64,000 nucleotides of DNA from Escherichia coli (GTDB lineage Bacteria; Pseudomonadota; Gammaproteobacteria; Enterobacterales; Enterobacteriaceae), in NCBI RefSeq assembly GCF_003991155.1, contig NZ_CP031297.1. One strand, written 5' to 3'. Each line of letters opens with the position of its first letter. Positions within the stretch are counted from its first letter, which is position 1. The position numbers were made by a program. Of the stretch, positions 55,601 to 61,600 are shown piece after piece.

Positions 55601-58600
55601 GCTGGTGTTAGTCTAGCTAACCGACGCCAGCGGCCAAGTGTTTGGAAGGCGAGCCATCATAGAGTCAGTAGAGAGAGATACTTTTGGAAATCAATAGTAT
55701 TATGATTGGTACAAATGAGTTGTAGCTCCATATTTTAAAGGGGGATTTCAGAGAAATGAAGAATAAGAAGGTAATAACTTTGATAATGGCCGCAGCCGCA
55801 TCATGCTCGTCAGTCTACGCCGCGACATTACCGACCAGTGAGGTAGACGCATACATACTTGCGATGAACACCATGTCACCTATCACTGCAAAGTACACCA
55901 TCCAGTACAAGCAAGCGGTTGAGCAGAAATGCAATACAGCCCTGAGCGTTGAGCAGCTCAACTCAAAGGCATTCACCAATGTTGTCCAGGCAATGGTGAG
56001 TAGTGAGACCGTCGATAGAATGGGGCTTGATGCTGCTGGTGGATCACTCCAGGATACCCTGTCTGTGATCGGCAAGAACGTCACATGCAGTGACCTGAAC
56101 GCGCCATTTAAAGCACTCTTGGATGATAAGGACTTCACCAGAAAGCATCAGCACCTATCGAAGGTGCTGCATACTTGGAATGAAGTTGTTTCTCAAAGCA
56201 AACCCTGAGTAACAAAAAGGAGCCTAACTGGCTCCTTTTTTAATGGGGATGATGTTACGTTCGTGGACGTTATTTTCACTCGGGATATGTAACGTTGAAA
56301 AAGGCGTACCGACAAGAGAGTGGTCACATAGCTCTCCATAATAGATGAGCGACAAAATCTCTTGCTCGTTGATTTTTCCCACCTTAAAAAGGTAATTGAT
56401 TATTGCTGTATCCAGTAGGTCGTGACACCCATTAAGCAGATCCACGATATTGGCCGCAGCTTCATTTTCCTCTCCGTCATCTCGACCGGCTAATACTGAT
56501 TCAACCCAAGCCTCAAGGCTCGGATGTCCCTCAGCGAGCTCTATTTGACGGCACTCGTTCTCGATCAACCCTGTGATTGCTTCGTTGAGCGTTCCGCCAT
56601 AAGTCGGCATGTTGAGAACAACTCCAAATCCGGGGATTTCTTTTTGGATTGGCTTCGCATCCTTGGGAGCTGATTTCAGCCACAGGAAAAACCAGATCCC
56701 AGAGCTTATGTCTTCCGGCTTGACCTGGTTGGCCGCAAGGAATTTGGAAACCTCGTTACAGATGATGCCATCTGGCGCTGCCATCTCGTAAATACCCGCC
56801 ATCAGATCTTCAAGGCTCTTATACATATTATCTCTCGCACCTGTACATGATGTTTTCACTATCGTTGTTAAGCGTTTTTTCAGCAAGTATGTTCCAGCGA
56901 GACATCTTATACCATTCCATCTAAATCTGTAAAATTACCGTATTACCGTAATTATGATAATTACGGTAAATAAATTTAAGTTCTTCTTGCTGTTGTTCTA
57001 CTTATTAAAATGTATCTTTGAAAAAGTAGAGTTTTTGGAATAGGATAGGTGGTGCTGAATGCCCACTTTTTACAAGGAGCGCGACCAGTGATTTTTGATG
57101 TAAGAGCGACCTTTGAAGTGGCACTCCAGACGGACACCCACCTGGTACTTATCGATCTGGATCAGGGAGCATCAGTTACGAACGATGCTGATGCAGTGAT
57201 CGCCTGGTTGGCCGCAAACCTCGAAGGTGGAATTGGAAAACGTAAGGTGTACTACCGGGACACCGATGGACGCTTTGATGAGCTCAAGGTTAATGCCGGT
57301 GCTTTTGCCGGATTTGCACCTTGTAGCGAAGGCCAGCAGACCACCTTGGCTGGGATGCTCGGCCAGTAACTTTGTGTGGAGAACTCGATGTTAAACAAAA
57401 ACAAATTTGAGAAAGTTTTAAAGAGAATCCTCGATAAGAACTTTGAGCGCTGCTCTATTTGCAGGAAACCATTCCCTGGACCGTGCCATACTTTTGCTGG
57501 TTTGGATTCGGACAATAAAGTTCAGAACGTAGGTTCTTGCTGTCGGACCAGTATTGTGGACTTGCGGCATGGAGGTGTGTATACGACCGCTCCTGTAGAT
57601 ACTCAAGAGGGGCAAAGTCAGGCGCATGAGCTACTCGCAACACATCCTTGTAAGGGGATGATGGGGCATGCTTAGCAAAAAAGTCTTTTTCATTAGTCAA
57701 GCGGAGGCCGAAAGACTGGAGCCGGTTCCCGGTGCGGCCATGATCTCCATAACTGACCCAGACAAGTCCCCTGCCGCTCTCGGACAGTGGGGGCAGTTGT
57801 ACCGCGATAGCTTCTATGACGGCGGCTATTCTGAGAACACCATCCACACGATGAAGGCAGCGTTCCGGATGAATTACGCCTCTTACATTGACTCATCCCA
57901 GGCTGAAAAGCTGTCCACCTTCCTGGATGGATTGGTTGGTAGCGGTATCGATCAGATCTTCGTTCATTGCTATTACGGAGAATCCAGAAGTGGCGCGGTA
58001 GCGCTGTACCTCCAGAACAAACATGGATTCACTCCGAATAAGCCGATCACCAAGCCCAACCGAACAGTTTACGAATTGCTGTGCAATCCAACCAAGTTTG
58101 AACCACTGATGCAAAGCTACGAAACGCAACATATGGAGGAGGAACTACCTCTTCACCTCAAAATATGGGATTTTCTTCTCGTTGCGGTCGGGCTTAGGAG
58201 GTGACTTTGCACGACACAAACAATGACAAGGAAGAGCTAGTTTCACATGCGAAAGTAAATGTTCCGGCAGAACAAAGCATTCGCGGTGAACTGTTGCCGT
58301 CATCGAGCTCGCTCCGGAACATCCAGGACAACCCCGCCGTCGCCTATCTGGTGAGCCTCGGGTCAAAGCGAAGCAGGCAGACCATGAGCTCATTCCTCAA
58401 CATTGTCGCCAAGATGATCGGGTTTCAGAACCTTCGTGACTGTGCATGGAGCTCAATGAGGCGGCACCACATATTGGCGGTGCTGGAAATGCTGGGGGAT
58501 GCAGGGAAGGCTCCGGCAACGATCAACACCTACCTGTCAGCGCTCAAAGGGGTGGCTCTTGAAGCCTGGACGATGAAGCAAATTGATACGGATAGCTTCC

Positions 58601-61600
58601 AGCACATTAAGCAAGTCCGTTCAGTACGTGGATCTCGACTTCCTAAAGGGCGGGCACTTGAACGCCATGAGATTCGCAGCCTCTTTTTCACATGTGAAAG
58701 TGATTCAAGCGCCAAAGGGCTTCGGGATGCGGCCATTCTCGGGGTGCTCCTCGGGTGTGGCTTGCGCCGCTCGGAAATCGTTGCGCTGGACATGGGAAGC
58801 ATGATCTACAAGGACCGCGCTCTCAAGGTTCTTGGCAAGGGCAACAAAGAGAGAATGGCGTATGTGCCTGGTGGCGCATGGAAAAGACTGGATAAGTGGG
58901 TTGAAGAGGTTCGAGGAACGCATGAAGGGCCTTTATTCCCGAGGATCAGGCGGTTTGATGATGTGACTGGAGAGCGGATGTCGGATCAGGCCATCTACCA
59001 CATCTTGGAGACCAGAAGAGTTGAAGCCGGTCTGGAGATGTTTGCGCCCCATGACCTGCGACGCACCTTTGCCTCCTCGATGCTGGATAACGGTGAGGAT
59101 ATTGTGACCGTGAAGGACGCAATGGGCCACTCAAGCATTGCAACTACCCAGAAATATGACAGACGCGGCGATGAGCGTTTGAAGAGAGCGAGCCAACGCC
59201 TCGATATAGCGGATTAACAGCATGAATGATGAAGAACTCGAACTTGCCAGAGCCGAAGCCATGAAAGCCGATAGGTGCTTTTCAAAAGGACGGCTCAGGG
59301 ACGAATTTCGGATGAAGCCTAAGCCAGGAGTAGAGCCAGTTTCGTTCTACAAAAACGGGTATGGTGGCCAATTTGGAGTGTACCGGATAGCAGATTGCCA
59401 ACCAATGCGGAGAAGGGGTTGTTCACCGGCATCACAAAAGCAAATAAGGGCGCAATCCATCCTTTCGGTCAAGGCAAGAATGCGTAGCAACCTGGCAAAG
59501 GCCTCTGTCATGGCACAAAGGTGGGTCGCTCTGGAACCTCTGGTTCTCGATACCGAGACGACCGGACTTGGTGAAAGAGACCAGGTGATCGAGCTGGCTG
59601 TTACTGACATCAGAGGCGCGGTTCTCCTCTGCACCAGATTACGGCCAACCGTGGAAATAGACCCTCAGGCAATGGGTGTTCATGGCATCACCGAGACTGA
59701 GCTGTCGAATGAGCCTACGTGGACTCAAGTTGCGCCAGCTCTCGCCCGGCTTTTGTCGGGCCGTCATCTGGTGATATTTAACTCCAGTTTCGACAGTAGG
59801 ATGTTGAGGCAAACAGCCAGTGCATTTGGAGACCAACTCTCTTGGTGGCAAGAGCAGAACTGTCTGTGCGCGATGAAGCTGGCGGCTGATGCCTTTGGCT
59901 CAACCAACCGGCACGGCACAATCTCACTTGCGGATGCCACCTGCGAGGCAGGTGTGAGCTGGAAAGGTCGAGCCCATTCAGCAGCGACCGACGCTATTGC
60001 CACCGCCGACTTGGTGACAGAGATAGCCAAAGTCCAACGTGACCTCGTGGTCCAGCTCCAGGAGCTTCAAAGCAAAGGTAATTTGGAATGACAGAACAAT
60101 CCTACGGCGAAAGCCTCAAATTTTTCTCAGACTGGCAGAAGGACCCCGCGAAACGCACCGGCCTGAATGTGCAACACACGCTAACCAGAGGTGAATATCC
60201 TACGGTCAGCATCGAGATTGCGCCGATCAGGGCATCGGGGTCCAGCCCAGACTGGAAAAGCAAGATCACGGTGCAGCTCACTCGCGGCGAACTGACGGCG
60301 TTTTGCAGCGTTCTCTTTGGTTTGCGTAGCAAGGCTGAGGGTTCCTATCACGGCGACGCGAAGAATAAGAGCTTTGCGGTTTACAACAACGGCAAGGCCG
60401 GTGTTGCGATCATCCTTAGTGAGCGAGGAAACCAGCTCCAGAATTTCATCAATGATGACGACCGAATGGAGCTCGCAGTCTTCGCAGTTCGCCAGCTTTC
60501 CAACGCATGGAAAGTTACCCCTTCTGATGCCATCGCGCTGCTACGCCAATCAGCGTGGATGGACCGAAATTTGTCCTAATCGAGCAAATCTAGGCACCCT
60601 AAAAGTCGTCCTATAACCACAAAGTTAGACCATCATGCAAAGTGGGGTATAGAGGGTGCCAGCCCCACCCCAGCAGTCCCCCTCAGCCACATTTCTGGCT
60701 TGCCCCGCGCTTTTCTTCTTTCTCTCTTTTTCTCTCTCTTTCTCAATCTAATCTCACACACGAAGGTCAAACAGGGCACCCGCCGACGCGAAGCGGAGGC
60801 GTATTCTTGCCCCTCCCCCTCATTGCATGATGGTCTAAATCTGTCTACTATGTAACCAATGAACTGTTAGAACAAACCCACACATAGGCGGCAGCATGGC
60901 TAAAAACTTCATATCAGAACAATTCTCGGCCATGTGCCGCGACTTAACGAACCTGTCCTCTCTTATCAAACGACTACCGCCACGGTACGCAAAAGTTGCG
61001 GCCATCCCTCCTACCGGAAAAGGAATGGAGAACGAGCCCGTCAACAAGATTGTCGTAACTGAACAAACTGGGCGCGAAGCTCTTGAGCTGGCAGCGCACA
61101 GCTACAGAGATCTTCACATCAACCCAGACTATTCGCAGAAGTCTGCCAGGCGCACCGTGGGGGTACTCTGGTTCTCCCCTTCCAGGATTGGTGTAGCTGA
61201 CGAAATTGCGGCGACGGTTGAACGCATCAACGCGGCCAAAGCTGGTATCGAGGAGTTCATTATCTCGACGTACCCCACCAGGCAAGAGAGGTTTGAAGCA
61301 CTTCGAGCGGACTGCCCTGGTGTCATGACTCTCCACCTTTACAGACAAATTCGGTGCTATACCAATGGCGACATCGACTCTATCCGCTTCACCTGGCAAC
61401 GGAAGGACTCCTTGAAGAAGCCCGTAAAAGAGGAGCTTTTGCAACGCATCAGAGAGGAGCTGGAGCGATCTGGGCCAGACTATCAACTTCCCCTGGAGCA
61501 GCTTATCCAGAAGATCGCCAGCACCCCGGAGCCTTATCTCCGGGAGCGAAGGGAAGTAAAGGTTCAACCGGTGGCAAACGTCATGGCCGCAGGGGTACTC

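Follow-up and report, generated by a model that had tools for sequence, protein, structure and literature searches.

The stretch of Escherichia coli DNA considered here (64 kb of contig NZ_CP031297.1, hereafter the window) carries a string of six genes on one strand, preceded by a short inverted-repeat site. The segment is the IncC (IncA/C2) backbone vcrx132–vcrx137 of pVCR94, ordinary plasmid housekeeping and no new multi-gene system. The locus is already known as the published RecHS ('recombination hot spot')/int region of IncA/C plasmids, although the original prediction, made from the sequence alone, had not recognised a named system here. Its core is very likely a 34-bp site (IR2) together with the recombinase Int (vcrx135), forming a resolution and cointegration module of the Cre/loxP or ResD/rfsF kind. 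Positions 56900–60700 are 100% identical to Aeromonas hydrophila pR148, and 1,212 plasmid records match this segment (953 at an identity of at least 99%; 908 near full length). Most hosts belong to Salmonella, Klebsiella or Escherichia, and typing places the plasmids in IncC, MOBH and MPF_F. The features of the locus are as follows, with vcrx gene names taken from pVCR94 Dataset S1 (PMC4207636); ORF stands for open reading frame.

56943–56969: IR1, perfect 13-nt arms (56943–56955 and 56957–56969) around a 1-nt spacer, TTACCGTAATTAT-G-ATAATTACGGTAA
56997–57030, plus strand: IR2, the RecHS core and crossover site, TCTACTTATTAAAA-TGTATC-TTTGAAAAAGTAGA
57018–57046, plus strand: sigma-70-like promoter from a consensus scan, -35 box TTGAAA (57018–57023), 17-nt spacer, -10 box TAGGAT (57041–57046)
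57062–57084, plus strand: conserved element, a third arm-like half-site in the 5' untranslated region, CCCACTTTTTACAAGGAGCGCGA, overlapping the ribosome-binding site of ORF A
57088–57369, plus strand: ORF A (vcrx132), 93 aa, the first gene after RecHS
57388–57675, plus strand: ORF B, 95 aa, Cys-rich, without a counterpart in the RefSeq pR148 or pVCR94 annotation
57668–58204, plus strand: ORF C (vcrx134), 178 aa, divergent Cys-based phosphatase of predicted dual-specificity/protein tyrosine phosphatase (DSP/PTP) fold
58207–59217, plus strand: ORF D (vcrx135, 'int'), Xer-like tyrosine recombinase, 336–338 aa
59222–60091, plus strand: ORF E (vcrx136), 289 aa, an N-terminal domain and a DnaQ-like DEDDh 3'-5' exonuclease
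60088–60579, plus strand: ORF F (vcrx137), 163 aa, predicted Whirly-fold protein

All six reading frames lie on the plus strand as originally described, and the starts of three are refined. ORF A most likely begins at GTG 57088, the RefSeq start, behind an AAGGAG ribosome-binding site; 57049, the start of its longer reading frame, falls within the promoter. For ORF B the reading of the junction favours ATG 57388, and for ORF D the most likely start is TTG 58207, with AGGAGG at 58196–58201 as the best ribosome-binding site. The overlaps noted earlier (57675/57668, 58204/58201 and 60091/60088) hold at the level of reading frames, with B and C sharing ATGCTTAG and E and F sharing ATGA, but with the TTG start two nucleotides separate ORF D from the stop of ORF C, so that C and D do not overlap. 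No intrinsic terminator-like site was found inside the gene string, and Rockhopper, run on published pVCR94 RNA-seq data, called vcrx134–137 as a single operon (PMC4207636). A codon-level comparison with relatives, covering ORFs A, B, C, D and F, found purifying selection throughout (pN/pS or dN/dS of 0.24 for A, against relatives of 56–96% identity, 0.2–0.34 for B, 0.14–0.35 for C, 0.18–0.37 for D and 0.16–0.34 for F).

RecHS was mapped between the divergent ORFs R55_128 and R55_196 (Hegyi, Szabó, Olasz and Kiss, 2017, Sci Rep 7:10595; PMC5587640). Recombination there requires IR2, is RecA-independent, needs an IncA/C plasmid in trans, and is bidirectional, with cointegrates both formed and resolved (PMC5587640). 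The window reproduces the published geometry of 13-1-13, 27 nt and 14-6-14: IR1 and IR2 are exactly 27 nt apart, and the IR2 arms (56997–57010 and 57017–57030) are 14 nt long and complementary at 12/14 positions around a 6-nt spacer (57011–57016). The operator-like palindrome that had been placed ahead of the genes is real, at 56943–56969, but it is IR1; the true site, IR2, lies 27 bp downstream and was overlooked. Looking for a recombinase target site nearby, as had been suggested, leads to IR2 at 56997–57030.

IR1 is present in 6 of the 68 loci fetched for comparison (L numbers below), all of the IncA/C lineage, and a homologue of vcrx131, the divergent neighbour to its left, was detected in five of those six. 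In the IncA copy (L002:6011-6037) a compensatory CC<->GG swap turns ACCGT/ACGGT into ACGGT/ACCGT and retains the dyad. As a recombinase target or a general operator IR1 was rejected, being dispensable by experiment (PMC5587640) and confined to these six loci; it is probably the operator of some regulator of the divergent promoters, and a minus-strand promoter-like site for vcrx131 lies at 56933–56904.

IR2 has the layout of a simple recombination core, with inverted arms of 10–14 bp around a spacer of 6–8 bp. Across 52 loci its arms are invariant and its spacer occurs in 16 variants, and the left flank carries ~0.1 bit per position, essentially no information. Invariant arms, a variable spacer and an unconserved left flank are the pattern expected for the core site of a tyrosine recombinase. 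No second or inverted copy and no site-like sequence was found in the 64-kb window, nor within ~7 kb in the 52 loci, at up to 6 mismatches, and an invertible or excisable element was rejected on this ground.

The site travels with a particular gene. A scan with the IR2 arms alone (CTACTTATTAAAA-N6-TTTGAAAAAGTAG, exact) of 100,044 genomes, one per species, yielded 45 loci, in genera that include Proteus, Xenorhabdus, Photorhabdus, Enterobacter, Pantoea, Erwinia, Edwardsiella, Alteromonas, Alcanivorax, Marinomonas and Pseudoalteromonas. A vcrx135 homologue of 49–80% identity (tblastn) lies directly downstream on the same strand in 40 of the 45, and in the remaining five the contig stops before any gene could appear. 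The recombinase starts ~60–300 bp past the site, or ~865 bp past it where A and C intervene. Homologues of vcrx135 were found in 1,889 plasmids, and the converse test, from protein to site, took three homologues from unrelated plasmid backbones (pESI-like Salmonella Infantis pN55391, 81% identity; E. coli IncFIB p720632_72, 61%; Cronobacter pH322_2, 63%); in each of them the core precedes the recombinase by 70–500 bp. In an Enterobacter IncFIB/FII plasmid, likewise, a recombinase of 62% identity is preceded at a distance of 86 bp by an identical 33-bp core, and the other five genes (A, B, C, E, F) are absent. In these loci the recombinase gene stays linked to the site and is inherited with it. 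In Photobacterium pPHDP70 (L005), where B–C–D is present, no IR2-like core was found within 2.9 kb upstream at up to 3 mismatches; the site may have diverged there or the region been rearranged.

Two further arrangements were seen among the relatives. The megaplasmids pN55391 (L058:2477-4020) and the IncHI2-size Salmonella plasmids H60–H64 and H100–H103 have a core with one arm mismatch (TTTGAGAAAGTAG), and carry a decayed remnant of the phosphatase-like gene beside an intact, 81%-identical recombinase. Xenorhabdus hominickii has three identical copies of the core with a 77%-identical recombinase, on three contigs and with identical flanks (L027, L028 and L029), which suggests that the cassette is carried there by a mobile element that is repeated.

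A natural crossover bears on the use of the site. In the IncC plasmid pCPO20180081_2 (NZ_CP136049.1; L008:4063-5038) the 976-bp left flank of the core matches the left flank of the core in p720632_72 (L059:1932-2907) at 99.8% identity, and from the core onward the plasmid is 99.9% IncC, with the junction inside the 34-bp site and a spacer, TGTACC, of the IncFIB type. Judged from its sequence, this plasmid is a natural IncC x IncFIB-type recombinant formed within the RecHS core, and supports use of the site.

Such a junction also fits a different emphasis, in which the same cassette would be mainly a device for docking and fusing replicons, plasmids with one another or with chromosomes, and for trading the DNA that flanks the site, with spacer variants as compatibility classes, and not a dimer resolvase. 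RecHS was discovered through cointegrates that were later transferred by conjugation (PMC5587640), and a comparative-genomics paper reports foreign type IV secretion system genes near it (PMC9709138). Identical arms recur in the 45 genome loci, in unrelated plasmid groups and in the chromosomes of Proteus, Xenorhabdus and other genera, the spacers TGTATC or TGTACC are common to several groups, and to these may be added the three identical copies in X. hominickii. We nevertheless think this reading unlikely. Verified natural recombinants number one, the absence of a second site within ~7 kb of any locus gives no sign of excisable or invertible segments, and docking would need cross-reactivity between recombinases of 50–80% identity, which is an assumption. 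Its chemistry, moreover, equals that of dimer resolution, so that the two roles are not exclusive. In its broadest form the idea would make of the RecHS core and its recombinase a promiscuous docking cassette across IncC, IncA, IncF, pESI-like, Cronobacter and marine MOBH plasmids and Proteus and Xenorhabdus chromosomes, with the 6-bp spacer as a compatibility code and, in some lineages, the DSP-fold and Whirly-fold proteins perhaps tuning the reaction; this, too, we regard as doubtful.

The gene that accompanies the site encodes the tyrosine recombinase originally proposed. Its product matches the NCBIfam XerC profile over residues 55–329 (E = 4e-44) and a PHROG integrase profile (5.5e-36), and its closest solved relative is XerD 1A0P (E = 4e-21). 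In the alignment to XerD 1A0P the catalytic residues R189, K213, H284, R287, H310 and Y319 (338-aa numbering) are all present in the conserved order. On the R-K-H-R-H/W-Y series and a profile match spanning the catalytic and core-binding domains, vcrx135 is classed as a tyrosine recombinase; it is not an orthologue of XerC or XerD by the curated equivalog cut-offs, scoring 151 bits vs 335 for XerC and 133 vs 330 for XerD. The linkage of site and gene, the spacer pattern, the complete catalytic set and the natural crossover together point, with high probability, to vcrx135 as the RecHS recombinase. The window also has two minus-strand genes for the class 1 integron integrase IntI1, unrelated to RecHS (9055-10068 and ~14008-14541; NCBIfam 9.9e-241), both in its high-GC resistance-island part.

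The putative promoter is built into the site. Its -35 box sits within the right arm of IR2, and it would direct transcription into the gene string; of 35 distinct right flanks 27 have TAnnnT exactly 17 nt past TTGAAA, where control offsets yield 0–6. A -35 box inside the arm suggests autorepression, as for F ResD, which represses transcription at its site rfsF (cited in PMC5587640), and the recombinase probably represses its own transcription. Further downstream, most loci of the family keep a block at ~+35 to +60 after IR2, irrespective of the gene that comes next (consensus over L007–L060 CCCnATTTTT(C/T)AC(G/A)CAGCGCGCC; CTACTTTTTAC in L060 and CTACTTTCAC in L041), which in some relatives reads as a third arm. 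In the window, the element at 57062–57084 has a 12-nt inverted match (I6) to the IR2 right arm; any role for it is one that we only infer. Loci of the Enterobacter type have a GCCGG…CCGGC hairpin after the downstream block.

AcaCD control and a non-coding RNA were considered for the gene string and rejected. Of the 17 AcaCD ChIP-exo peaks none maps upstream of vcrx132–137, and the closest are those at vcrx128 and vcrx140 (Table S3, PMC4207636), and no AcaCD motif was found upstream either. The non-coding RNA was set aside because, when 55500–61500 was scanned against Rfam by E-value, the single match was a sub-threshold SraG outside the gene-string region.

The five genes that accompany the recombinase are of varied kinds. 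ORF A has no match in Pfam, NCBIfam or PHROG; it is found in IncC, IncA and marine relatives, and is absent from pAsa4 and most other loci. Its region (57088-57369 against L002:6140-6420) is ~97% identical in nucleotides between IncC and IncA, where the flanking genes are at ~80%, and the IncA copy has a frameshifting deletion of 13 nt; the similarity could reflect recent exchange beside RecHS or an additional non-coding constraint. ORF B is probably a small zinc-binding protein, to judge from a CxxC…CH…CC pattern conserved in IncA and Photobacterium pPHDP70 and a weak zinc-finger hit, its single Pfam match. The pVCR94 annotation has a small minus-strand ORF, vcrx133, in its place, but purifying selection against relatives (pN 0.16–0.25 vs pS ~0.75 against IncA, Shewanella and pPHDP70) marks ORF B as a real, unannotated gene.

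ORF C contains, as the original prediction stated, the sequence VHCYYGESRSG (residues 99–109), a P-loop of the form H100-C101-YYGES-R107-S108 that agrees with HCX5R(S/T). Among 68 sequences, conservation is 90% or more at C101, G104, R107 and S108. Its Pfam DSPc match falls below threshold (i-Evalue 0.007, 16.6 bits, 43 residues); the structural assignment is to the PTP/DSP fold, and ORF C is a predicted phosphatase, 12–20% identical to the atypical dual-specificity phosphatases DUSP28, STYX, baculovirus PTP-2 and PTPMT1. The family is small, with ~284 clusters from bacteria, plasmids and phages, and homologues without the recombinase occur in a Pseudomonas megaplasmid and a phage family (one weak phage match).

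The DEDD exonuclease of the original prediction is ORF E, which matches Pfam RNase_T over residues 107–264 (1.2e-16) and NCBIfam DEDDh models, and has intact Exo motifs (D110/E112, D191 and H252/D257). Its N-terminal domain of ~100 aa corresponds to PHROG 25825. ORF E occupies this position in the gene string only in IncC, and thousands of IncI/IncF plasmids have homologues of ~50% identity, placed after yacAB, a toxin–antitoxin pair, or after a KfrA-like gene. ORF F has no Pfam or NCBIfam profile match; it is assigned structurally to the Whirly fold, and is a candidate single-stranded nucleic-acid binder. Whirly/MRP1-MRP2 is a fold that binds single-stranded nucleic acid, and ORF F represents it as a plasmid protein of Gammaproteobacteria. 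Homologues at ~40% identity lie beside parMR, repB or KfrA-like genes in other plasmids, which weakens the candidacy of ORF F as an accessory factor specific to the recombinase.

How these genes are distributed is best seen from the arrangements in relatives:

IncA: vcrx131 homologue, RecHS, A (with the 13-nt deletion), B, C, D, helix-turn-helix (HTH) gene, HipA, F
pAsa4b: RecHS, C, D, HTH, HipA, F
Marine MOBH plasmids (TARA, Alteromonas, Alcanivorax): RecHS, A, C, D, F, x, Ter, KfrA-like, x, UvrD, TraF, TraH
Edwardsiella and Marinobacterium: D, F
pPHDP70 / pVP7-1: B, C, D, hypothetical gene (in pPHDP70 the ORF B homologue is upstream of C–D)
pESI-like: decayed C remnant, intact D
Most chromosomal and IncF members: D only

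The gene-neighbourhood comparison that had been proposed as a check did not find conserved linkage of all six genes. IncA and pAsa4 have hipBA in place of ORF E, C has decayed in pESI-like plasmids beside an intact D, B is missing from the marine relatives, A and B are missing from pAsa4, and ~35 of the 40 loci with site and recombinase have no passenger gene at all. Since the five passengers come, go and are exchanged independently of one another, the six-gene string is not a conserved system; it is a lineage-specific assembly of genes from a plasmid-maintenance region. The earlier suggestion of a site-specific recombination or multimer-resolution module thus fits the recombinase, but the five other genes are variable passengers.

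These data bear directly on the idea that the six genes form one dedicated system for DNA processing, defence or anti-defence, one that would make obligate partners of the recombinase out of the phosphatase, exonuclease and Whirly-like protein. The tight packing in one orientation, the lack of an internal terminator and the Rockhopper operon would suit it, as would the presence of all six genes together in ~950 IncC plasmids, the adjacency of C and D down to 57% identity and of D and F in several lineages, and the matches of ORF E to PADLOC PDC-S48 and a Cas-associated DEDDh model. Yet co-occurrence within IncC reflects a near-clonal backbone and not selection for linkage, and homologues of C, E and F are found without D in other plasmid contexts. 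The PADLOC matches are confined to the generic exonuclease domain of E, with A, B, C, D and F unmatched, and the accessory defence-like locus that had been proposed was rejected on this result. Given the swaps and losses above, comparative data largely refute a dedicated six-gene system, which we regard as very improbable.

The preferred reading, a site and its recombinase, can be put as a sequence of steps. Int would bind both arms of IR2, cleave at the spacer edges through Y319, and swap strands between two copies of the site. Where the copies stand as direct repeats on a plasmid dimer, the dimer would be resolved to monomers, as by P1 Cre/loxP and F ResD/rfsF; where they stand on different replicons, cointegrates would be formed and resolved. 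Int would also repress the promoter whose -35 box overlaps the right arm of IR2, and the other five genes would be co-transcribed backbone passengers. The module may in this way contribute to plasmid stability.

Several points weigh against this account. The first concern the identity of the enzyme. The RecHS study states that the cognate recombinase was not yet identified by experiment (PMC5587640), and a literature search found no later paper naming it. The two IntI1 genes in the window, and other recombinases on helper plasmids, make the assignment of vcrx135 a comparative one. Because the genome scan demanded exact arms, arm invariance is partly built in, though adjacency to D is not. Another plasmid-encoded enzyme might then recombine RecHS, with vcrx135, annotated generically as an integrase, acting on some other site such as a chromosomal att. 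We consider this extremely unlikely: site and gene are co-inherited over more than 40 loci at 49–80% protein identity and are often the sole shared features, the 64-kb window holds no further copy of the site or site-like sequence, and the remaining tyrosine recombinases of the window are the integron integrases of its resistance islands.

The other points concern expression, function and the passengers. In R16a and IP40a large islands part RecHS from the downstream genes and recombination persists (PMC5587640), so the promoter overlapping IR2 cannot be the sole source of Int expression. Wild-type RNA-seq values are very low (vcrx134 90, vcrx135 62, vcrx136 14 and vcrx137 24), and in an acaCD deletion mutant vcrx135, the sole gene of vcrx134–137 flagged as differential, falls from 62 to 1 even though no AcaCD site lies upstream (PMC4207636). 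RecHS is absent from 14/152 IncA/C plasmids (PMC5587640), which implies that a role in stability is dispensable or redundant. Given the tight coupling of C with D and of D with F in several lineages, C or F might modulate the reaction.

The genes on either side of the locus are of less direct concern:

50920–55173: vcrx128, the upstream Rhs gene
56224–56826, minus strand: vcrx131, divergent neighbour and R55_128 homologue, 200 aa, left of IR1/RecHS and outside the gene string
60896–61771: vcrx138, Tus-like gene (NCBIfam 7e-159)
61924-62964: gene for a KfrA-like coiled-coil protein

Deletion of the vcrx131 homologue left conjugation unaffected (PMC5587640). vcrx128 encodes a 1,417-aa Rhs/YD-repeat protein and is AcaCD-activated in pVCR94 (PMC4207636); a small downstream ORF overlaps it (55145–55585, in the region 50920-55585) and could be its immunity gene. 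The gap of 316 bp between ORF F and the Tus-like gene holds a long pyrimidine-rich CT tract (60660-60790; …CTTTTCTTCTTTCTCTCTTTTTCTCTCTCTTTCTC…). Past the Tus-like gene the order is KfrA-like, vcrx140, UvrD-like helicase and traFHG, and the ordering D, F, Ter, KfrA-like, UvrD, TraF, TraH is kept in marine metagenomic plasmids (L055–L057). By analogy, a resolution site that adjoins a putative plasmid terminus function (Tus-like) is reminiscent of dif, which lies in the terminus of the chromosome.

IncC plasmids rank among the main vehicles of multidrug resistance, and in the clinic hybrid or cointegrate plasmids pose a problem that keeps returning. With vcrx135, the orphan RecHS site becomes part of a directly testable gene–site pair, and the identical-arm cassette in IncF, pESI-like and other plasmids, together with one natural junction, suggests a route for plasmid fusion and the exchange of segments. 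If the docking interpretation were true, the cassette would be more than a private dimer resolvase, and would drive the formation of hybrid plasmids in general. There are also small gains in annotation among genes otherwise listed as hypothetical, namely the predicted DSP-phosphatase fold of vcrx134, the predicted Whirly fold of vcrx137 and the missed gene ORF B. Current understanding is not overturned by these results.

Among known systems, RecHS (PMC5587640) is the same locus, with IR1 as 13-1-13 and IR2 as 14-6-14 between the vcrx131 homologue and the downstream genes. Beyond that description, the present analysis adds the assignment of the recombinase to vcrx135, the wide distribution of the cassette outside IncA/C, one inter-plasmid crossover, and a conserved layout in which the promoter overlaps the site. 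By sequence, the best relatives of vcrx135 are XerC/XerD, which act at dif, cer and psi and share the same catalytic hexad. They are a heterodimeric pair working at an asymmetric site under the control of FtsK or accessory proteins; vcrx135, unlike them, is one enzyme, encoded on a plasmid, whose site is nearly palindromic, and it scores far below their equivalog cut-offs. In F ResD/rfsF and P1 Cre/loxP a single tyrosine recombinase acts on inverted arms around a spacer of 6–8 bp, with no long accessory sequences. Both act inter- and intramolecularly, and resolve the dimers of plasmids or prophage-plasmids. Compared with them, the arms here are 14 bp and the spacer 6 bp, and the nearest solved relative of vcrx135 is XerD; the likeness to ResD/rfsF and Cre/loxP lies in the layout, and may extend to a role in stability and to autorepression.

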